The notes under the pieces: model-generated
Seen by the model: only the letters and a program-made list of their open reading frames with translations
Databases searched by the model: none
What the model was told of the DNA's origin: nothing
Translations under genes and position numbers: made by a program
Source of the DNA: a phage
Reading direction: 5' to 3' (one strand)
Assembly: GCA_021469345.1 (NCBI GenBank)
Contig: GCA_021469345.1_3049.1
DNA: 64,000 bases
In this document: positions 2,961 to 48,432 of the stretch, piece after piece
How positions within the stretch are numbered: position 1 is the stretch's first letter
Layout of the letters: each line of letters begins with the position of its first letter

Positions 2961-4168
<1,208 letters not shown>

Positions 4169-4232
4169 TGGCGTGGCATCATGAAACTTGGGATATTATT
4201 AATTGGCTTGAAGAAAATTATGTGAGGTAAAT

Positions 4233-4508
4233 ATGTTTCCGACTTATTCTAAAATCGTAGAAGTAGTGTTTAGTCAAATTATCGCTAATAATATGTTTGA
4301 AAAGCTTGATAACGCAGCCGAACTTCGAATCCACGCTCAAGTGACTCATGTATTGAACACTTTGCTTCCAGACCAGGTGGATTCTGTTGCCATTACGCTG
4401 TATCCAGGTTCCGCGCATATCATTGTCGTATTCGATCTTGATGCTGAGTTAGTTATCAAAGGCGATATTCGTTTTGAATCACAGACATCAGAATTCAAGG
4501 CAATTTAA
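4233..4508 (+). CDS. hypothetical protein (cd.x region)
   Basis: 91-aa ORF with ATG and upstream GAGG. Confidence 0.5.
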   Translation: MFPTYSKIVEVVFSQIIANNMFEKLDNAAELRIHAQVTHVLNTLLPDQVDSVAITLYPGSAHIIVVFDLDAELVIKGDIRFESQTSEFKAI

Positions 4509-6656: not shown

Positions 6657-6664
6657 TATAAATA
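6657..6664 (+). promoter_or_regulatory. candidate late promoter (TATAAATA)
   Basis: Exact TATAAATA immediately after gene 31 stop, about 140 bp upstream of rIII. Confidence 0.4.
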
Positions 6665-12331: not shown

Positions 12332-14380
12332 ATGGAACTTATTACAGAATTATTTGATGAAGATACTACTCTTCCGATTACAAACTTAAATCCAAAGAAG
12401 AAAATACCACAAATTTTTTCAGTTCATGTTGATGACGCAATTGAACAACCAGGCTTTCGTTTATGTACCTATACATCTGGAGGTGATACTAATCGTGATT
12501 TAAAGATGGGCGATAAAATGATGCATATTGTTCCTTTTACATTAACCGCTAAAGGTTCAATTGCTAAATTGAAAGGTCTTGGTCCAAGCCCAATTAATTA
12601 TATCAATTCGGTTTTTACTGTTGCAATGCAAACAATGCGTCAGTATAAAATTGATGCCTGCATGCTTCGTATTCTTAAGTCTAAAACCGCCGGTCAAGCT
12701 CGACAAATTCAAGTTATTGCTGATAGACTTATCCGTAGTCGTTCAGGTGGCAGATACGTCCTTCTTAAGGAACTCTGGGATTATGATAAAAAGTATGCAT
12801 ATATTCTTATACATCGCAAAAATGTATCACTAGAAGACATTCCAGGGGTTCCGGAAATTAGTACCGAGCTCTTTACTAAAGTTGAATCGAAGGTCGGTGA
12901 TGTTTATATCAATAAAGATACTGGAGCTCAAGTAACTAAAAATGAGGCAATTGCAGCATCTATTGCACAAGAAAATGATAAACGTTCTGACCAAGCTGTA
13001 ATCGTTAAAGTTAAAATTTCCCGTAGAGCAATTGCACAAAGTCAGTCATTGGAATCTTCTAGATTTGAAACACCGATGTTTCAAAAATTTGAGGCTTCAG
13101 CGGCAGAATTAAATAAACCAGCGGACGCGCCTTTAATTTCTGATTCTAATGAATTAACGGTAATTTCTACTTCAGGATTTGCACTAGAGAATGCTCTTAG
13201 CAGTGTTACAGCTGGGATGGCATTCAGAGAAGCTTCTATAATTCCTGAAGATAAAGAATCCATTATTAATGCAGAAATAAAAAATAAAGCTTTAGAAAAA
13301 TTACGAAAAGAATCTATTACTTCAATAAAAACTTTAGAAACTATTGCTTCTATCGTCGATGATACTTTAGAAAAATATAAAGGTGCTTGGTTTGAAAGAA
13401 ATATTAACAAACATTCGCATTTAAATCAAGATGCTGCAAATGAGTTAGTACAAAATTCTTGGAATGCAATAAAAACAAAGATTATTCGAAGAGAATTACG
13501 TGGATATGCTCTTACCGCTGGATGGTCATTACATCCTATAGTCGAAAATAAAGATTCATCTAAATACACACCAGCGCAAAAACGCGGAATTCGTGAATAT
13601 GTAGGTTCAGGATATGTAGACATGAATAATGCTCTTTTGGGATTATATAATCCAGATGAGCGTACAAGTATTTTAACAGCATCTGAAATAGAACAAGCCA
13701 TTGATAATTTAGATTCAGCCTTTAAAAATGGTGAACGATTACCAAAAGGTATTACTTTGTATCGTTCACAACGAATGTTACCTTCAATATATGAAGCAAT
13801 GGTAAAAAATCGAGTTTTTTATTTTAGAAACTTTGTGTCAACATCATTATATCCAAATATTTTTGGTACTTGGATGACTGATTCATCTATAGGTGTTTTA
13901 CCAGACGAAAAGCGTCTAAGTGTTTCTATTGATAAAACTGATGAAGGACTAGTAAATTCTAGCGATAATTTAGTTGGAATTGGATGGGTTATTACTGGGG
14001 CTGATAAGGTCAATGTTGTTTTACCCGGTGGAAGTTTAGCGCCTTCAAATGAAATGGAAGTCATTTTGCCACGTGGATTAATGGTCAAAGTTAATAAAAT
14101 AACCGATGCATCTTACAACGATGGAACAGTTAGAACTAACAACAAGCTTATTCAAGCTGAAGTTATGACCACAGAAGAACTCACCGAATCGGTAATCTAT
14201 GACGGAGACCATTTAATGGAAACTGGTGAATTGGTTACAATGACAGGTGATATAGAAGACAGAGTTGACTTTGCATCATTTGTTTCATCAAATGTTAAAC
14301 AGAAAGTAGAATCATCTCTTGGAATTATTGCGTCTTGCATAGATATTGCAAACATGCCTTACAAGTTCGTTCAAGGATAA
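12332..14380 (+). CDS. alt: Alt ADP-ribosyltransferase (packaged, modifies host RNA polymerase)
   Basis: 682 aa from second ATG; ART-like R / S-T-S / E-x-E elements in the C-terminal half (LYRSQ..., FVSTSLY..., MEVILPRG); same length and position as T4 Alt. Confidence 0.88.
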   Translation: MELITELFDEDTTLPITNLNPKKKIPQIFSVHVDDAIEQPGFRLCTYTSGGDTNRDLKMGDKMMHIVPFTLTAKGSIAKLKGLGPSPINYINSVFTVAMQTMRQYKIDACMLRILKSKTAGQARQIQVIADRLIRSRSGGRYVLLKELWDYDKKYAYILIHRKNVSLEDIPGVPEISTELFTKVESKVGDVYINKDTGAQVTKNEAIAASIAQENDKRSDQAVIVKVKISRRAIAQSQSLESSRFETPMFQKFEASAAELNKPADAPLISDSNELTVISTSGFALENALSSVTAGMAFREASIIPEDKESIINAEIKNKALEKLRKESITSIKTLETIASIVDDTLEKYKGAWFERNINKHSHLNQDAANELVQNSWNAIKTKIIRRELRGYALTAGWSLHPIVENKDSSKYTPAQKRGIREYVGSGYVDMNNALLGLYNPDERTSILTASEIEQAIDNLDSAFKNGERLPKGITLYRSQRMLPSIYEAMVKNRVFYFRNFVSTSLYPNIFGTWMTDSSIGVLPDEKRLSVSIDKTDEGLVNSSDNLVGIGWVITGADKVNVVLPGGSLAPSNEMEVILPRGLMVKVNKITDASYNDGTVRTNNKLIQAEVMTTEELTESVIYDGDHLMETGELVTMTGDIEDRVDFASFVSSNVKQKVESSLGIIASCIDIANMPYKFVQG

Positions 14381-14383
14381 ATC

Positions 14384-14735
14384 ATGGAACTTATTACATA
14401 ATTATTTGACGGCGCTTCGGCGCCGGTTGTTAACTTAAATCCTAAGCATAAAATACCACAAATTTTTGCTATTCAAGCCGGCGAAGAAAGCGTGCTTCCT
14501 GGATTTAGATTTTGTACATACACCTCTGGCGGTGATACAGATAAAACGTTAAACCAGGCGACAAAATGATGCATATCGTAATGATAGGTGTTAATGAGAA
14601 ACTATCATTAGTTAAGCTTAAAAACTTGGGTGGAAATCCAATTGGTGTCATTAATGCTGTTTTGATACTGCTCTTCAAACAATGAAACAGTATAAAATCG
14701 ACGCATGCCTATTACGCGTACTAAAAAGTTCAAAA
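14384..14735 (+). pseudogene. degraded 5' fragment of an alt paralogue
   Basis: Nucleotide similarity to alt 12332-12720 (atggaacttattaca..., ...aaaataccacaaatttt..., ...ggtgatac...aaaatgatgcatat..., ...aaaatcgacgcatgcct...) with a stop after codon 5, frameshifts and deletions. Confidence 0.7.
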
Positions 14736-14740
14736 TGTGG

Positions 14741-14770
14741 TTTACAAGTCCCTCGTGTTGTGTTATAGTA
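14741..14770 (+). promoter_or_regulatory. T4-type early promoter (repeat copy)
   Basis: Same sequence as the promoter at 1532; upstream of ORF 14801. Confidence 0.5.
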
Positions 14771-22914: not shown

Positions 22915-23138
22915 TGAGATACAGCATTGATGATGCTTTTAATTATGAAGAAGAATTTGAAACGGAAATTCAATTCTTAATTAAAAAGCATAATCTTAAG
23001 CGTCAGGATATTCGTATCCTGGCCGACCACCCGTGTGGTGAAGATGTCCTTTATATTAAAGGAAAATTTGCCGGATATCTTGATGAATATTTTTATTCTA
23101 AAGATATGGGCATTGATATGCATATGAGAGTTGTATAA
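22914..23138 (+). CDS. hypothetical protein (uvsY.-1 position)
   Basis: 74-aa ORF overlapping uvsY stop. Confidence 0.5.
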   Translation: MRYSIDDAFNYEEEFETEIQFLIKKHNLKRQDIRILADHPCGEDVLYIKGKFAGYLDEYFYSKDMGIDMHMRVV

Positions 23139-23648: not shown

Positions 23649-25160
23649 TTATAAATTAACTGTTTTCATTACGTAATTAAATTTTTCATCTGCGTAGCGC
23701 TGAATACGATCAATGCCGTGTTTTAAAAGATAGTTCAAATGAACATATTTCTTTTTCGTATTAGCAGATTTTGGTTTAACGCCACAATCATCTATGAGGT
23801 CCCAGACTGTTGCGATTGTTTTAGAACCATGCTTACGTAATACACGACCGATTGTTTGTAATACAATGATTTTTGATTTAACGCCGTGCGCTAAAACAAC
23901 ATGATGCAGATTTTTAACTGAAATACCAGTAGAAAATACACCATAACTCGCTACTATAATTATTCCTTTACCATTTTCAGCTAAGGTTTTCATTACGTTG
24001 CGTGTTTCAGTATCAACTTCCCCTGATACGTAATAAACTTTATCGTATTCATTTTTAATTAAATCGAAAATAGCTTTACCATGCGATACATGTTTAAACA
24101 TGACAAAAGCGTTTTCATCTTTTTGCGCAAGCTTAATAGCTAATTTAGCGATCCATTTATTTCTTTTACTAAGCCCAGTAATAATTTTTATTTCTTCTTG
24201 ATAAGTTTTTCCCTTTAATTTAGTAGTGAACTCATCGGGATAGCGAAGAAAAATACTATTAATTTTTAGCTCAGTTACTTGTCCATCTTCCATTAATTTA
24301 GAAGTCGTTACTGGCTTAAATATTTCACCAAACATTCCAACATACTGCATGATATTGGCTTTGCCATCACGTAATGAACCAGACAAACCGAATTTGAACA
24401 TGCAGTTATTTAAACCTGATATGATAGATGAAATACTTTTTCCTGTAGCAAGATGGCATTCATCATTCATCATCATTCCAAATTGGGAGAACCATTCTTT
24501 CGGTTGTTTTACTACAGTTTGCCATGTACCAACAACGACTGGTGCATCATTTTTATATTTATCATCTTTTGATGCTCCGCCACCAATTTTCTTTATCATT
24601 GCATGGCTGAATAAACGATAGTCGACGAAGTCATCAGCCATCTGAGTTGTCAGAGCAGTTGTTGGAACAATGATAAGAATTTTACCTTCATAATTTTCCA
24701 AATAATATCGCGCAAGCAAAGCTTGGATTAACGATTTACCAGCGGATGTTGGAAGATTAAGAATTCTACGACGATTAACTAATCCTTCGAACACTGCATC
24801 TTTTTGATACCAGTGCGGTTCAATTCTTTTATTTCCTGAATAGATTTCTAATTTAGAAAGCCATTCATCAAAATCTTTTCTTGATAATTCTTCTTTTTCG
24901 TTAATTTGTGGGTCAATCCAGGCTTTATAGCCAAAGTTATCACAGAACTTTTTAATTTGCCCGACTAAGCCGAATGGAAGAAGACGATTATAATCTAAAA
25001 GACGGATTCGTCCATCCCAGTGGCCATATCTGTATTTCGGATTAAAACGATACCCATCAGCTTCAAAGCTAAAGAAATCACGGAGTTCATGAAATGTACT
25101 TTCTTCACAGTCAATTCTCACGTGACTAAAATCATAAAAATGTACTTTAATGTCAGTCAT
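23649..25160 (-). CDS. uvsW: UvsW SF2 DNA/RNA helicase
   Basis: 503 aa; Walker A LPTSAGKS, DECH box; matches remembered T4 UvsW. Confidence 0.9.
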   Translation of the reverse strand: MTDIKVHFYDFSHVRIDCEESTFHELRDFFSFEADGYRFNPKYRYGHWDGRIRLLDYNRLLPFGLVGQIKKFCDNFGYKAWIDPQINEKEELSRKDFDEWLSKLEIYSGNKRIEPHWYQKDAVFEGLVNRRRILNLPTSAGKSLIQALLARYYLENYEGKILIIVPTTALTTQMADDFVDYRLFSHAMIKKIGGGASKDDKYKNDAPVVVGTWQTVVKQPKEWFSQFGMMMNDECHLATGKSISSIISGLNNCMFKFGLSGSLRDGKANIMQYVGMFGEIFKPVTTSKLMEDGQVTELKINSIFLRYPDEFTTKLKGKTYQEEIKIITGLSKRNKWIAKLAIKLAQKDENAFVMFKHVSHGKAIFDLIKNEYDKVYYVSGEVDTETRNVMKTLAENGKGIIIVASYGVFSTGISVKNLHHVVLAHGVKSKIIVLQTIGRVLRKHGSKTIATVWDLIDDCGVKPKSANTKKKYVHLNYLLKHGIDRIQRYADEKFNYVMKTVNL

Positions 25161-25189
25161 GTCTAAATACCATGTAATAAATATATCTA

Positions 25190-25197
25190 TATTTATA
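25190..25197 (-). promoter_or_regulatory. late promoter for uvsW
   Basis: TATTTATA on plus strand (= TATAAATA on minus) about 30 bp upstream of the uvsW start. Confidence 0.55.
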
Positions 25198-25210
25198 CTG
25201 AGGAAATATT

Positions 25211-25891
25211 ATGATAGATAAAGATTATATTGCAGAGCTGAAGGCTCTTGATGATAACAAAGAAGCTAAAGCTAAATTAGCTGAATACGCTGAACAGTTT
25301 GGTATAAAGGTCAAAAAGAATAAATCTTTTGATAATATCGTTGCTGATATTGAAGAAGCCCTCCAGAAGCTCGCTAGTGAACCTATGCCAGAGACTGATG
25401 GGTTATCTATTAAAGACTTAATTAATGCTGCTGATGCTGCAGAGGGGTTAAAATATGACGATGAAGAAGTCAATCCAGAAGCAGCACTTCTGATTGATTC
25501 TCCGGTTAAATCTGACATTAAAATTGAAGTAGTAGAAACGGATAAAATTCCTGAAAATACCGATGTTTTGATTGAAGATACTCCTTTTGTTGAAGAAAAA
25601 TTTGAACAGGCTGTAGCTGAGATTATCGAATCTGAAAAGCCGTCTGTATTTACTCTTCCGGAAAACTTTAGCCCAAATCTTCAGCTGATTGGAAAAAATC
25701 CAGGATTCTGCACTGTTCCTTGGTGGATTTATCAATGGATAGCTGAAACTCCGGATTGGAAATCTCACCCAACTAGTTTTGAACACGCATCGGCACACCA
25801 AACTTTATTTAGCTTAATTTATTACATTAACCGCGACGGATCAGTTTTAATTCGTGAAACACGCAATTCTTCTTTCGTAACATTAAAATAA
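25211..25891 (+). CDS. inh: Inh, inhibitor of prohead protease
   Basis: 226 aa, same length and position as T4 Inh. Confidence 0.8.
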   Translation: MIDKDYIAELKALDDNKEAKAKLAEYAEQFGIKVKKNKSFDNIVADIEEALQKLASEPMPETDGLSIKDLINAADAAEGLKYDDEEVNPEAALLIDSPVKSDIKIEVVETDKIPENTDVLIEDTPFVEEKFEQAVAEIIESEKPSVFTLPENFSPNLQLIGKNPGFCTVPWWIYQWIAETPDWKSHPTSFEHASAHQTLFSLIYYINRDGSVLIRETRNSSFVTLK

Positions 25892-25900
25892 GGATAACTT

Positions 25901-27021
25901 ATGGCTTTTACAGTTGATATAACTCCTAAAACACCAACAGGGGTTATTGATGAAACCAAGCAGTTTACTGCTACACCCAGTGGTGAAACTGGAGGTGGAA
26001 CTATTACCTATGCTTGGAGCGTAGATAATGCTCCCCAAGAAGGATCAGCAGCAACTTTTGATTATGTATTAAAAGGACCTGCCGGTCAAAAGACCATTAA
26101 AGTAGTTGCAACAAATACACTTTCTGAAGGAGGTCCGGAAACGGCTGAAGCGACAACAACTATCACAGTTCAAAACAAGACACAAACGACTACCTTAGCC
26201 GTAACTCCTGATAGTCCTGCGGCTGGAGTGATTGGAACAGCTGTTGAATTTACTGCTGCTTTAGCTTCGCAGCCATCAGGTGCATCTGCTACGTATCAGT
26301 GGTATGTAGATGATTCACAAGTTGGTGGAGAAACTAACTCTACATTTAGCTATACTCCAACTACAAGTGGAGTAAAAAGAATTAAATGCGTAGCCCAAGT
26401 AACCGCGGCTGATTATGATGCAAAGGAAGTTACTTCTAATGAAGTATCATTAACGGTTAATAAGAAGACAATGAATCCACAGGTTACATTGACTCCTCCT
26501 TCTATTAACGTTCAGCAAGATGCTTCGGCTACATTTACCGCTAATGTTACTGATGCTCGCAAATTACTTATTCATGGAAGAAAGATTCTTCTCCTGTAGA
26601 AGGGTCAACTAACGTATATACTGTCGATACCTCATCTGTTGGAAGTCAAACTATTGAAGTGACTGCCGTCGTTACTGCAGATGACTATGATAGCAAAACT
26701 ATTACAGCAGAAGGTCAAGTTCAAGTAACCGATAAAGTTGCTCCGGAACCAGAAGGTGAACTACCTTATGTTCATCCTCTTCCACATCGTACTTCAGCTT
26801 ACATCTGGTGCGGTTGGTGGGTTATGGATGAAATCCAAAAAATGACCGAAGAAGGTAAAGATTGGAAAACTGACGATCCAGATAGTAAGTACTACTTGCA
26901 TCGTTACACTCTCCAGAAGATGATGAAAGAATATCCAGAAGTTGATGTTCAAGAATCGCGTAATGGATACATCATTCATAAAACTGCTTTAGAAACTGGT
27001 ATCATCTATACCTATCCATAA
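25901..27021 (+). pseudogene. hoc: hoc (highly immunogenic outer capsid protein) interrupted by a frameshift
   Basis: Ig-like Hoc homology runs through ORF 25901-26599 then continues in another frame (...QITYSWKKDSSPVEG... from ~26554) into ORF 26659-27021; total 1121 bp is not a multiple of 3. Confidence 0.75.
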
Positions 27022-27025
27022 TCAT

Positions 27026-27050
27026 AAGGGGCTTCGGCCCCTTTCTTCAT
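27026..27050 (+). terminator. rho-independent terminator after hoc
   Basis: aaggggc-ttcg-gcccctt then T-rich tract. Confidence 0.65.
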
Positions 27051-27110
27051 TTTGAAAGCACACAAAACACAATCAGAAAATGATGTATATAATGGCACCA
27101 ACTCGATAAC

Positions 27111-27326
27111 ATGAGATTGATTATGAGAACTGAGGTTGTGGTGTTTACTCTTCATGAGTCTGGAAAGTCATTCATTGAAATTGCTCGTGAATTAAACTTA
27201 CAGGCGAAAGAAGTGGCTGTATTATGGGCTCGAGCTATGACTGCTAAGAATAAATTTGAGACTCGAGAAAAAGTTGTCTATAGAAAAAGACATATTAATA
27301 AAAAGGTGAAAAATGGAACAGTATGA
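27111..27326 (+). CDS. hypothetical small protein with helix-turn-helix-like segment
   Basis: 71 aa; GKSFIEIARELNLQAKEV resembles an HTH; 24.3 position. Confidence 0.45.
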   Translation: MRLIMRTEVVVFTLHESGKSFIEIARELNLQAKEVAVLWARAMTAKNKFETREKVVYRKRHINKKVKNGTV

Positions 27327-27591
27327 TCTTTATGAAAATGAATCTTTTGCTAATCAATTACGCGAAAAAGCACTTAAAAGCAAACAGTTCAAGCTAGAGT
27401 GTTTTATTAAAGATTTTTCGGAACTTGCTAATAAAGCAGCTGAACAAGGTAAAACATATTTTAGTTATTATTGCACTGCTCGCGATAAATTGATTACTGA
27501 AGAAATTGGTGATTGGCTGAGAAAAGAAGGATTTAGCTTTAAAGTCAATAGTGATCAGCGTGATGGTGATTGGTTAGAAATTACATTTTGA
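27313..27591 (+). CDS. hypothetical protein (24.2 position)
   Basis: 92-aa ORF; SD AAAGGTGA. Confidence 0.5.
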   Translation: MEQYDLYENESFANQLREKALKSKQFKLECFIKDFSELANKAAEQGKTYFSYYCTARDKLITEEIGDWLRKEGFSFKVNSDQRDGDWLEITF

Positions 27592-27600
27592 GGATTAATT

Positions 27601-28605
27601 ATGTTTAAAAAGTATAGCAGTCTTGAAAATCATTACAACTCTAAATTTATTGAAAAACTTTATAGCCTGGGATTGACTGGCGGCGAATGGGTAGCTCGTG
27701 AAAAAATTCATGGAACAAACTTTTCTTTGATTATTGAGCGTGATAAAGTAACTTGCGCTAAACGTACTGGACCGATTCTTCCTGCTGAAGATTTCTTTGG
27801 GTATGAAATTATTCTAAAGAATTACGCTGATTCCATTAAAGCAGTACAAGATATTATGGAAACTTCAGCGGTTGTATCTTATCAAGTTTTTGGCGAATTC
27901 GCTGGACCTGGCATTCAGAAGAATGTTGATTATGGTGATAAAGATTTTTATGTATTTGACATTATTGTCACTACAGAAAGTGGTGATGTAACTTATGTTG
28001 ATGATTACATGATGGAATCGTTTTGTAATTCATTTGGGTTTAAAATCGCTCCACTTTTGGGTCGTGGTAAATTTGAAGATCTTATTAAACTTCCAAATGA
28101 TTTGGATTCTGTTGTTCCGTCTTATAATTTTACCGTAGATAATGCAGGTTTAATTGACGCTAACAAATGTGTTTGGAAAGCTGAAGCAAAAGGCGAAGTA
28201 TTTACCGCTGAAGGATATGTATTGAAACCTTGTTATCCTTCTTGGATGCCTAATGGCAATCGTGTAGCAATTAAATGCAAGAACTCTAAATTTAGCGAAA
28301 AGAAAAAGTCTGATAAGCCTATTAAAGCTAAAGTTGAGCTATCAGAAGCTGATAATAAATTGCTGGGAATTTTAGCTTGTTACGTTACACTGAACCGGGT
28401 AAATAACGTTATTTCTAAAATTGGCGAAATTGGTCCTAAAGATTTTGGAAAGGTGATGGGACTAACTGTTCAAGATATTTTGGAAGAAACTTCTCGTGAA
28501 GGTATTACTCTAACTCAAGCGGATAATCCTTCTTTGATTAAAAAGGAATTAGTTAAAATGGTACAAGATGTACTTCGTCCGGCTTGGATTGAATTGGTAA
28601 GTTAA
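27601..28605 (+). CDS. rnlB: RNA ligase 2
   Basis: 334 aa; nucleotidyltransferase lysine motif KIHGTN; same length as T4 Rnl2. Confidence 0.9.
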
Positions 28606-41189: not shown

Positions 41190-42891
<1,702 letters not shown>

Positions 42892-42924: not shown

Positions 42925-44388
42925 TTATGCTGGTGATAAAAAGGTAGAAAGTAATACCCATTCGCCGTCTTTACGAACGTAAGCTTGGCCATCTTTTGGA
43001 GCTTCAGGAATATAACCTGCTTCTTGGAGAGCTTGAACATCACCTTGCAGAGAAGATATACTACCTTTAGCGGTATTCACTTCTTGTGTAACTGATGCAA
43101 TGTTGGTTTCGTTAGCTTTTATTGAATTGGTTAATCCTCGTTCTTCGACAGTTGAACCATTTGGGTTAGTTCCATTTACTAAAGTATTTAACGCTACAAC
43201 TTGCCCTTTAATTCTTGTGCTGTTATTACCAATTTCTACCTGTAGGTTTTGAACATCGTTATTCAAGCCTGAAACAGAAGTTTCAATTGTAGAAACTCGG
43301 TTTAAAAGAGACCCAGGAGGAGACGGTTGTCCACCGCTAGAATCAGTTCCAACAATTTGGTTTAACCATGAAACATTCGCTCTTAAACCAGATGAAGTGT
43401 TTTCACCTACAATTCCGTTTAGAGCTTCGATTGAAGTTGTATTATCTTTAATTTGTCCTTTAATACTCGAAGGAATATCATCTGAACCAATGGAAGTTTC
43501 AATAACTGTTAAACGCTGTTTAATACCTCCACTTTGATTTAGCTCTAAATTAATAGATGCAATATTATCAGTGTTTGTATTAATACTCGTGATAATCGAA
43601 TTATTTCCTGGATATCCTATTGAGGTCTTAATAGCACTAATGTCAGATTCAAATGTTGTCTGTTTAGTGTCAATTTCATTTAAACGACTATAAACGTTTT
43701 GTGAAAATGATGGTGGTTTCGGTCCAAGCTCTTCACGAAGATTACCAACTTCAATAGTCAAAGAACCTACATCAGATTCAATAAATTTTGTTTCTAATTC
43801 GCTTAAACGTATTCCCTGCGAAGTAATGGCATCAGTATTATTAATAATGCGATGCTTCATTCCACTACTAGGATTTCCTACAACAGGAAGACCATTAATA
43901 TCTTGACCTGCGTATTGTCCAAGTTCACGCTTTATCCACAGTAAATCATTTCTGATTGTTCTGTATACAGAGTTGGCCTCAGAGTTAAATGGACCAATAT
44001 CAGCAAGAATACTGTCAACCGTACTATTAGTTCCATTTAATATTTCTGTATGTTCACTGGTTAGCGTTTTGAGGTCAGAAATATCCTTTTTATTGATACC
44101 TATTTGGGCCAAAGCTTCAATATCACCAGATACATCTAAGATGCCCTGAATTGTTTTAATATCACTATTTGCGGTTTCTAAAGATGTTTTAAGTATTCCA
44201 ATGTTTTTATCAAGAACTTCAACATTTCTTAGTACGGAAACTGTAGGTCTATTCATTGAACCTTCACTTCCATACTGTGTATCAGCTCCTAAAATTTCTT
44301 CGCCGTTTTTAATCCAGGAAATGCGGCTCTGGCCCTCTGCAGGAGGGCCGTCAACGAATGGTAAGTCATTCAGTACAATATCTGTCAT
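42925..44388 (-). CDS. wac: fibritin (whisker antigen control, neck whiskers)
   Basis: 487 aa; long Ser/Thr/Asn-rich coiled-coil segments; ends ...[27 protein letters not shown] (foldon-like C-terminus). Confidence 0.9.
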
Positions 44389-45968
44389 TCTTTTACCTTA
44401 ATTATGTAGTTTAAAGAAATGTTCCATGGACGTGTTTCATTTCCAATTAATTCAGGACGATTTAATGTATATTTGGAATTACGCTGCGATTCTGGGTCAA
44501 TTTCATATCCGTCATTGGTGAAGTATGAACGGTTATCCCAGTCAAGTCCTTTACGTGTACCAACAAAATTTGATCTACGGGTATTACCGAATGCCCCAGA
44601 ATCATCATGCTCACCAAATCCACCAGCATGTTTATGATAAGACATCTGCTGTTTCTGTACTTCACCAACATATCCACCAGTACAACCTACACCTAATCTA
44701 GGCTTACCAAATTGGTCATTGCCATTAACATTTGGATTCGTTAAGTGAGAGCCACGACCAGAGCCACGAACAAAAAGACCGCGCATGTCAGGCAATCCGG
44801 GATTTGATGAACTTCCGCCATATCTTGTTCCAATTCTAGAAGCATATAATGGACAATCTGAAGCTGAAACAGTTCCGCCATGACAGAATCGCCAAGCATC
44901 ACTAGGAAGGCTATCAGCCGCCCACATCATAATAGCTCCGACAGGAATAGTTCTATCAATTTCATTTTGCGTTACAACACGCTTACCTTGAATATAACCA
45001 CCGGTCATGTTAACTGTTCCGGTAATATTTGCTCCGCCTGAAGCTATTGTAAGTGTGTTATTAATGCGGAGTGTTCCATTAATCGTTTGACCACCTCTTT
45101 GGTGGATAACGTCAGCATTCCAAGCTAAGGCTGATGAAGCATCTCCTCCGCTTTGTGAACCAGCGGTTGTAGTTAATTTAACTACGCCTCTCATTGACGT
45201 TGTAGAACCACGGCCATTAAGAGTTGCGCCAGTAACTGCGACTGAAGCATTATTCGAGTTAACTTCTGACTGTGTTCCTAATTTAATTACACCTTTATAC
45301 TCTTCAGTAGCAGTAGAATTCATAAACGTATAAGGAGAAATCGCATAGCCTTCTCTTAAAGTTCCTTGACGAACTTGCGCTACTGTTGCTAATTGAACAA
45401 CGCCTTGGTCCGATTCGGTAGCTGTGGTTTCAGAAGGAGCAATTTGCGCAATTAATTTAATAGCTAACTGCTGTGTTTTTAATGGAGTCATTGCAGTAGT
45501 ATCATCTGCACCAGCTAATGCTTGCGGTAGAGATGAAATTTTAATAACACCATTCGAGGATTCAGTTGAAACTCGTGTTTCAAACGCATTATTAAGAGCA
45601 ACAGTAAATTTAGCTGGAGTTATAGAAGATTCGTTATTAACTCCGGCAATGGCTTCATCATTGGTTGAATACCTTGTTAATCCGTAAACAGTTTCAGTTG
45701 CGTTTGGATATGATAATCTTGTTGCCAGCGTTGCTGGTGTAACTGCTTTGGTATTATTAGTTCCATCTATAACTTCCTGTTCAGTGGCAAGAAATAAAAT
45801 TCCCTTTGTTGTTGACGATGCATCAGGAACTCCATTTACGCCAGCAGGAGAAATGGCTGCTATAGCAGCCTGAACATCAGTAATCTCTGGTGGAAAATTC
45901 GTATCGGTAGGATCAAATTTTACATAACGAGATTCATTAGAAACGTGTTGATATGTATTATTACTCAT
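44385..45968 (-). CDS. 12: short tail fibre protein gp12
   Basis: 527 aa; same length and position as T4 gp12. Confidence 0.9.
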
Positions 45969-46624
45969 GCTGTTCTCTCAAAATGATAAAATACTGTAGG
46001 AGTCTGCTGATTATCTAAAGTTACCGTTTGTGCGCCTAATAAATTCCATGTACCGTAGCCAGGTTTAGACTCAGAAATAATTTCCTGCGAAATAGTTATT
46101 CCATATGTAGAATATGTGCTTAATACATGTTTTTGATTATCTAAATAAGTAACTTCTAATTTACTACCATCTGTTGGATGGTCTTTATATGAGTTGATAG
46201 CAGTAAATGACGCAATAGCTTCTTGAAGGGCAACACGAACTTTTGCAACAAACTCAATTGCCGTCATTCCAGTTGTTGCTGAAACTGGAAGACCAAATAC
46301 TAATACCGTAACAGGAGAACCCGGAGGAAGAGAATCGTCTGTTACAGTTCCAGAAAATGCCCAATAATCAGTTTGAGAAACACCCTCAGGAGAAACACCA
46401 GTTTTATTAGTAATAATTGTACCAACGTCTTTTATAGAAAAATTATGAACGTCATTAATAGCTGATTCTACGTTTGGTTCATAAAATCCTTTCGCTAATT
46501 GAGAAATTGTCACTGACCCAACTGATTGACGATTCATTACATCTATATTACCAGCTTTAGGTCTAAAACCAAGAAAATCGGCTAAGCGGGAAATAACTCC
46601 CGCTTTATTATTAAGTAAACTCAT
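45965..46624 (-). CDS. 11: baseplate wedge / short-fibre attachment protein gp11
   Basis: 219 aa from ATG at 46624 (TAATG overlap with the gene 10 stop); ORF track extends 6 codons upstream. Confidence 0.85.
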
Positions 46625-48432
46625 TATGCAATCCTTATCCAACGATAAACTGTAATATATGGTTGAATGTTAGTTATTGATGTTGGCGGAGTGTGAGTAG
46701 AGTTAGTAGATGCTTTAGCTTCACGGTATTTAGTGTAAATTGGACCGGATTCATCTGGATCGTATTGACACCCACCAACAATGACTGATCCATTTTCATC
46801 AACTATTAGAACTTCTTCATCTGTTTCAGTTGCAGGAAGATTAGCATTTTCCAATGTAACCGAAGTAGAACCACCTGTTCCACCTGCAGTATGTGAAGGA
46901 TTTCCACCGGAATCTAAATCGTTGTTATTTAGAGCGAAATTCGGATCCGAAATATCTTCATTCCATCCAACTAAAACTTTTCCTTGCCCAAATAATTTCC
47001 ATGAGCCGAATCCCATATATGTAACAGGGTTGTTTGGATTAACAGCGTTTTCATATATAGTTCCAATAGGATAAATCGTATCAAAGATATTTGAAACAGC
47101 ATTAAATTCGCGTTGATAAGATTGAACTGCTTCTACATTTGGCCAACCAATTTTATCGAAGTCTGTTAAATTTACATCACCAGAAATATCTACTCCCGGT
47201 CCTTGCGATACATAGAGATTATCAGTTTCATCAATAATCTCATCTTTTGTCAATAATGTACCCAAATCATTATTAAACCAGGTGATATTGATAATGTCAC
47301 CATGCTCAAATACTCTATCGAAATGTAAAATTTCCGGTATGCCGTTTTCATCAGTTTCAATTGAATAATCGGTATGAGATTGTTCCCAAGTTCCACCTAA
47401 AACAGAGCATTCTACTTCATCGTCTGAATCGGCACCAATACAATGAAATAATGGCATTCCAACTGTGCCAGCCAATTCCTGCAAAATTCCGTTAAAACGA
47501 ACCTCAAGAGAGTTAGGATTAATAGGTTCTCCTGGAATTAATCCAAAAGCAGAAAATGGAATTGATTTCATTGTTGATAAATCAGTAACGTAAATGCTTC
47601 CTTCTAAAGAAGTTTTTGATGTTAATTTTGAATCTAACAATCTAATTTGACGTCTTGTATATGAACTTCTCCACTGCGATACACCATCCATAAATGTTTC
47701 AATTTGAACAGTGTCACCAATATTACAAGGCTGTCTTAATCGAATATTAAATCCATCAAGAGGAACCAGTTCTCCTTCATTTTCGCCCGGAGAGCCAAAA
47801 TCACTGTTTTCGCTAAACACATCGCCGTAATACAATTCGTTACCACGATGTTTTACTCTGATGTTATTTACATTATAACTGGTTCCACGGAAAACATCTA
47901 AAAAGTCCGTTTGTCCTTGGACTTCGACTAAAAATTCTTTACGAGCTACATTACTAATGTCTGAACTGGTAATTTTGTCAATTTGTTTATTTTTGACATA
48001 TTCCCAACGTCCTGGGGCACAATACACTAGTTCTAAATCGCTGAATTGAACATTAATTTCAACTGGTACTGCAGACCCTTTAATCGTATCACCGGAAGCA
48101 GCTACTAGTGTAACTGGGTTGACGTTCCATGTAGCAAATACGTCTCTAGCTCTAATTACCTTGTTGTAATCATTAACTGTTCCTTTTGGAAGATTTATAG
48201 TCACTCTTCCAGAAGAGGTATTAATAGCGTATGATTTTCCCCATTCAGCTTTTAGTGTTTGCCCAGATGAAGCATCATAAGTTTTCCAGGCACCAGCTGA
48301 ATATGGAACGTCTCCATCACCGAGCTCGTAATAAAGCTCATCAAAGTTTTCATTTATTTTTATACCACCTTTACGCAGGTAGTCACCGGTACCATCATCT
48401 ACAACATTACCGATATTAATATTTTGTTTCAT
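46624..48432 (-). CDS. 10: baseplate wedge protein gp10
   Basis: 602 aa; synteny. Confidence 0.9.

Follow-up and report, generated by a model that had tools for sequence, protein, structure and literature searches.

Hoc of phage T4 is a string of three variable Ig-like domains, as described from cryo-EM and AlphaFold models, and residues 281-376 form its capsid-binding domain (PMC10385173). Roles have been reported in particle dispersion and pH-dependent aggregation (PMC10385173), and in the binding of mucin glycans (bioRxiv 10.1101/2021.05.11.443681). Null mutations in hoc leave phage production unaffected and the mutants are viable (PMC3012670). In T4 HAP1, where Hoc is truncated at 44% of the protein length, the capsid is made without Hoc (PMC10580926).

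Disrupted hoc genes are also found in other phages, T2 being the best-known case. In T2 (AP018813.1), hoc is annotated as three fragments, EcT2_00190-00192. In our alignment, the frame of T2 hoc is shifted by three deletions, one of 11 nt at about codon 57, one of a single nucleotide within a poly-A run, and one of 2 nt close to the 3' end. Eight records with different accessions and host strains, of which seven carry the label T2 and one SV76, share this hoc sequence with 100% identity. Hence, the T2 hoc pseudogene is real. In the classical literature of the 1970s, T2 capsids are without Hoc; a statement to that effect was not found in the open-access literature. A single frameshift, leaving two ORFs, is present in hoc of vB_EcoM_FN, vB_EcoM_IME537 and IMG/VR UViG_2700989062, all otherwise complete T4-like genomes. 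For FN and IME537, the change is from A7 to A8. Among 21 T4-like hoc loci in IMG/VR, one carries an indel of 1 nt, and its reading frame stops after 146 codons.

The poly-A run at hoc codons ~158-160 varies in length between phages. It is A7 in vB_EcoM_F1 (hereafter F1), where hoc is intact, A8 in FN and IME537 and A6 in T2, where hoc is frameshifted. T4 and the DNA analysed here (positions 26374-26381) have the interrupted tract AAAAAGAA instead. An A7 tract is prone to both polymerase slippage and sequencing error. The run could be a hot spot for slippage, by which hoc is turned off, or a site of recurrent sequencing error. Patterns for the A6, A7 and A8 forms of the hoc tract were too short and AT-rich for an informative scan of viral_contigs; none of the 259 loci fetched contained hoc. 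A preprint on phage contingency loci (10.1101/2025.10.21.683753) makes no mention of the hoc gene.

We focused on a 64,000-nt stretch of DNA, referred to as the window, which is a Tequatrovirus (T4-like) segment. All gene positions are taken from the ORFs of the window. A disrupted hoc gene occupies positions 25901-27021 of the plus strand. Upstream are uvsW (23649-25160, minus strand) and inh (25211-25891). Downstream are 24.3 and 24.2 (27111-27591), followed by rnlB (27601-28605). The order inh-hoc-24.3/24.2-rnlB, with hoc on the opposite strand to uvsW, is the same in the T4 and Ozark annotations, and was recovered by tblastn with F1 proteins. The gene therefore sits where a Tequatrovirus hoc is expected, between inh and 24.3/24.2/rnlB. 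T4 segE, located between uvsW and inh, is absent from the window (25160-25211).

Signals flanking the gene were also identified. Read from the sequence, the ribosome-binding site AAGGA (25890-25894, plus strand) is 6 nt before the ATG at 25901, and this upstream context is common to T4, T2 and Ozark. Directly 3' of the hoc stop codon there is an intrinsic-terminator-like hairpin, AAGGGGCTTCGGCCCCTT, and then a T-rich run (27026-27053, plus strand). The hairpin sequence is also present 3' of T2 hoc. The T4 late-promoter motif, TATAAATA, occurs at 22 sites in the window, compared to 8.9 expected from shuffles; examples are at 6657, 12301, 23134, 29946 and 35898. No such motif was found immediately 5' of inh or hoc on the plus strand, where the nearest site is that at 23134. 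Hence, the hoc transcript probably starts further upstream, or at a variant promoter.

A preliminary description of this DNA had proposed that hoc is split by a frameshift, running through the ORF at 25901-26599 and then continuing in a different frame. Our searches agree. By tblastn, the match of F1 Hoc to the window was divided between frame 2, for residues 1-219, and frame 1, for residues 222-376. Since the two parts abut at the same junction, the split is no chance effect. As had also been described, there is no loss of similarity past the break; the match to residues 222-376 has 97.4% identity. The reported span of 1121 nt, which is not divisible by 3 (1121 mod 3 = 2), was confirmed. By comparison, all full-length matches among the best 40 of 657 matching phage records span 1131 nt. 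A 181-nt probe across the break corresponds to 191 nt in all of the 40 best records for that probe.

The lesion could be placed precisely. About 10 bp had been thought missing near position 26556. In our alignments, with T4 hoc among the references, there is a single gap, exactly 10 columns wide, between 26557 and 26558. At the site, the sequence GCT CCAGAAGAAG C(G/A) CAAATT is common to Ozark, T4, CAM-21 and T2, while a variant 10-mer occurs in F1, FN and IME537. In the window, the sequence is GCT|CGCAAATT (GCT-CG-CAAATT). Placement is ambiguous by one C; from the alignments and reconstruction, the missing sequence at the junction (26557..26558, plus strand) is CCAGAAGAAG or, given 1-nt C microhomology, CAGAAGAAGC. 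The site is not a homopolymer, and any flanking direct repeat is 1 nt at most. The lost codons are those of the P-E-E-A segment that had been expected at the break. Putting back the 10 nt results in one ORF of 376 aa, the continuous gene that had been anticipated.

The native 5' part of hoc, codons 1-219 (25901-26557, plus strand), encodes the first two Ig-like domains and ~25 residues at the beginning of the third. It could be aligned base for base to hoc of T4, T2, Ozark and F1. An intact gene would be a continuous ORF of 376 aa, or longer with extra Ig-like domains, but here there is a stop after 232 codons. The product of the ORF at 25901-26599 thus has 219 native residues, ending ...TFTANVTDA, and 13 out-of-frame residues, RKLLIHGRKILLL. 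The segment encoding this tail (26558-26599, plus strand) closes with a premature TAG at 26597-26599. What remains of hoc in the native (-1) frame (26560-27021, plus strand) encodes the rest of Ig-like domain 3 and the C-terminal domain, and includes the TAA. This frame is open from 26554 to the TAA at 27019-27021. It reads CSQITYSWKKDSSPVEGSTNVYTVDTSSVGSQTIEV..., and the translation extends from QITYSWKKDSSPVEG... to ...GIIYTYP. The -1-frame part is out of reach for ribosomes starting at 25901.

Implications for Hoc were assessed from its domains. With Pfam, a PKD match was found at residues 99-157; Ig_3 and I-set matches at 193-277 were seen in the repaired protein only. The N-terminal string of Ig-like/PKD domains typical of Hoc is therefore recognisable. 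The break falls at codon 220, the start of Ig-like domain 3 and 58% of the protein length. By reconstruction, the region corresponding to the capsid-binding domain, T4 residues 281-376, is at 26731-27018 (plus strand). Its coding sequence is present and conserved, but it lies past the TAG at 26597 and, relative to the start codon, is in the -1 frame. Because the break is upstream of residues 281-376, the 232-aa product is without the capsid anchor. Other structural genes are complete. A lesion so placed, in an otherwise complete structural gene set, is as expected for a hoc-null T-even phage.

The following sequence of events is proposed. Loss of the 10 nt, where the third Ig-like domain begins, would shift the frame. 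Translation from the start at 25901 would then yield a 232-residue fragment, in which two Ig-like domains are followed by a stub of the third, and then by 13 junk residues. Without the capsid anchor, virions would assemble, and be viable, with no Hoc fibres. In this respect they would be like T2, T4 HAP1 and hoc-deletion mutants. We infer that the virions are most likely Hoc-less but viable, with bare hexamer centres. The earlier suggestion that a hoc-null phage is viable is consistent with the literature on dispensable Hoc (PMC3012670, PMC10385173, PMC10580926). If the capsids are Hoc-less, the properties of dispersion, pH-dependent aggregation and mucin-glycan binding would be lost.

We compared the lesion with those described above. 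The T2 and window genes are alike in locus and genus; in both, hoc has a short frameshifting deletion, one of those in T2 being of similar size (11 nt), and T2 is viable. However, T2 hoc has three independent lesions, which indicates an old pseudogene, whereas the window has one lesion, at codon 220, and no further decay. T4 HAP1 is similar in that truncation is upstream of the capsid-binding domain, and the phage is viable with a capsid lacking functional Hoc (PMC10580926). Conversely, the HAP1 lesion is spontaneous, arose in laboratory T4 and is a C496T substitution creating an ochre stop at 44% of the length; that of the window is a 10-nt deletion at 58%. The frameshifts in FN, IME537 and UViG_2700989062 are 1-nt indels, and the window lesion is at another site. 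With respect to intact T4 Hoc (UniProt P18056, 376 aa), the window gene is alike in synteny, nucleotide identity (91.6%), repaired length, and its three Ig-like domains and C-terminal domain. It differs in that the ORF is broken, so translation of the Ig-like domains does not extend to the capsid-binding domain. Hence, hoc in the window is a new, independent allele of the hoc loss documented in this genus: a single lesion, of 10 nt, at a new site.

The best of the 657 matches to the hoc region is Ozark, with 94.0% nucleotide identity. For the flanks, the best identity is about 96-97%, to F1, FN, Ozark and AV122. Among 5.8 billion proteins, the closest intact Hoc is 95% identical to the repaired 376-aa protein. 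The closest proteins of 376 aa have 92-95% identity, and many are annotated as Hoc. The deleted segment, AP(E/P/D)(E/Q/A)A, is kept in 81 of 81 matches of 376 aa. Among ~100 listed Tequatrovirus records, other length variants are almost all in frame (1125, 1137 and 1116 nt, and 1419 nt with an extra Ig-like domain).

The stranded 3' part was examined for decay. Its native frame is free of stop codons. In comparisons with five relatives, dN/dS values of 0.04-0.22 were obtained over the whole 3' part, and of 0.03-0.08 in the C-terminal domain. By these measures, the out-of-frame 3' part retains the signature of strong purifying selection, and decay is not apparent. A single lesion, with no decay of the 3' part, indicates that the lesion is very recent or, alternatively, a local assembly error. 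Compared with the 81 matches of 376 aa, the sole private substitution of the repaired Hoc is D347E (codon at 26939-26941). This residue is in the capsid-binding domain, a few residues before the stretch Val353-Tyr360 that contacts gp23*. The substitution could be neutral, or could be the first sign of relaxed constraint.

Comparative sequence data make it likely that hoc carries a genuine, evolutionarily very recent loss-of-function allele, and that viable virions are made without Hoc fibres. A less probable explanation, raised in the preliminary description as an assembly error and one that we nevertheless take seriously, is that the phage has an intact 376-aa hoc. The gap would then come from assembly or polishing, or from a minority variant in the lysate that became fixed in the consensus. 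The downstream part, perfectly preserved in its native frame, fits such an artefact as well as it fits a very recent mutation. In addition, some other hoc splits in the databases, those of FN and IME537, are in a poly-A tract, as is typical of sequencing error. We therefore looked for second occurrences of the allele. Using exact and degenerate patterns, the deletion junction was not found elsewhere in viral_contigs, metagenome_contigs or genome_contigs. The 232-aa truncated product is not on record either, as judged by an exact look-up. Since neither the junction nor the product has a second occurrence, the allele is without independent confirmation. That the junction is unique in the contig collections searched is what an artefact would predict.

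The properties of the lesion, and of the assembly, point the other way. The usual errors are indels of 1-2 nt in homopolymers, and seldom clean losses of 10 nt from non-repetitive sequence. Genuine multi-nucleotide deletions in hoc do exist; an example is the 11-nt deletion of T2, seen in all eight records. We also surveyed gene integrity, using tblastn to compare all annotated F1 proteins with the window. Approximately 80 F1 genes have a counterpart. All but hoc match end to end in one frame, most with 97-100% identity. Leaving aside an alt-paralog remnant at 14384-14765, hoc alone is split between two frames. Hence, the assembly is not generally prone to indels, and an assembly error in hoc is less likely. 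We infer that the deletion is present in the phage DNA, and not just in the assembly. On balance, a real deletion is favoured over an artefact.

If the deletion is real, Hoc function might still be partly retained, either by -1 slippage in the 46-nt overlap between the frames (26554-26599) or by internal initiation of a C-terminal fragment. We consider this very unlikely. Motifs of the A_AAG type allow low-level -1 slippage in E. coli. One such tetranucleotide, at 26581-26584 (plus strand), is in the correct register, and the downstream frame is open to the native stop. This is the sole conceivable slippage site in the overlap, but it has no stimulatory element. There is no X_XXY_YYZ heptamer in 26554-26599, and the downstream 90 nt fold weakly (-14 kcal/mol). 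Nor is the two-frame arrangement shared by any relative; the listed full-length matches, and 81 of 81 matches of 376 aa, have one frame here. A slippage product would span ...TDARKLLIHGRKDSSPVEG..., and nine of its residues, where Ig-like domain 3 starts, would be wrong. Programmed -1 frameshifting was rejected, given the lack of a slippery heptamer, the weak downstream fold and the lack of conservation. Internal re-initiation was also rejected; there are six in-frame starts (26659, which is GTG, 26824, 26842, 26896, 26920 and 26923), none with a Shine-Dalgarno sequence at 4-12 nt.

A related idea is that the 232-aa product is a soluble, capsid-free fragment with two Ig-like domains, acting as a decoy for anti-Hoc antibodies or as a free glycan binder. 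Such a fragment might be accompanied, or replaced, by sub-stoichiometric Hoc arising from rare slippage at A_AAG. We attach very little weight to this idea. Were it correct, hoc would be regulated or neofunctionalised, and not dead.

Hoc-minus derivatives of T4 are in wide use for display (PMC10385173, PMC3012670), but an engineered knock-out, such as a display or vaccine platform phage, is the most improbable origin of all and was rejected, since the backbone is not that of T4 (hoc has 91.6% identity to the T4 gene, and no record exceeds ~97% identity in the flanks) and the lesion is a bare 10-nt loss with no foreign insert, scar or restriction-site features.

We return to the interpretation that the deletion is genuine. 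In that case, the window derives from a T4-like phage that is naturally Hoc-less and has just one lesion, which would be easy to repair. The phage and a repaired version of it would make a clean isogenic pair, in which to test what Hoc contributes to immunogenicity, to adherence to mucus and to the dispersion of particles. For the display of Hoc in vitro, the phage would offer a ready scaffold. It would also be one more independent case of the repeated loss of hoc in Tequatrovirus stocks. The allele raises no new biological question. For annotation, both ORFs belong under a single label, that of one disrupted hoc gene, instead of being given as two 'capsid and scaffold' proteins.

Other features of the window were noted in the comparison with F1. 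Two small F1 ORFs next to pseT are absent (~4165-4233). Between gp13 and gp14 (~41960-41965), an F1 homing endonuclease and a small ORF are absent. Directly downstream of alt (12332-14377), at 14384-14765, there are fragments resembling the first ~120 residues of Alt, in all three frames and with 50-62% identity. They overlap a match to a 64-aa F1 'hypothetical protein' and are also fragmentary in relatives. Some relatives have two alt genes, and the region resembles a second copy of alt that has decayed to a remnant. Finally, the segment at 42928-48432 is a mosaic host-range module. It contains baseplate and fibre genes. Here, amino acid identity to F1, the nearest relative, is 85% for gp10, 68% for gp11, 65% for gp12 and 84% for wac, compared to 97-100% in the rest of the window.
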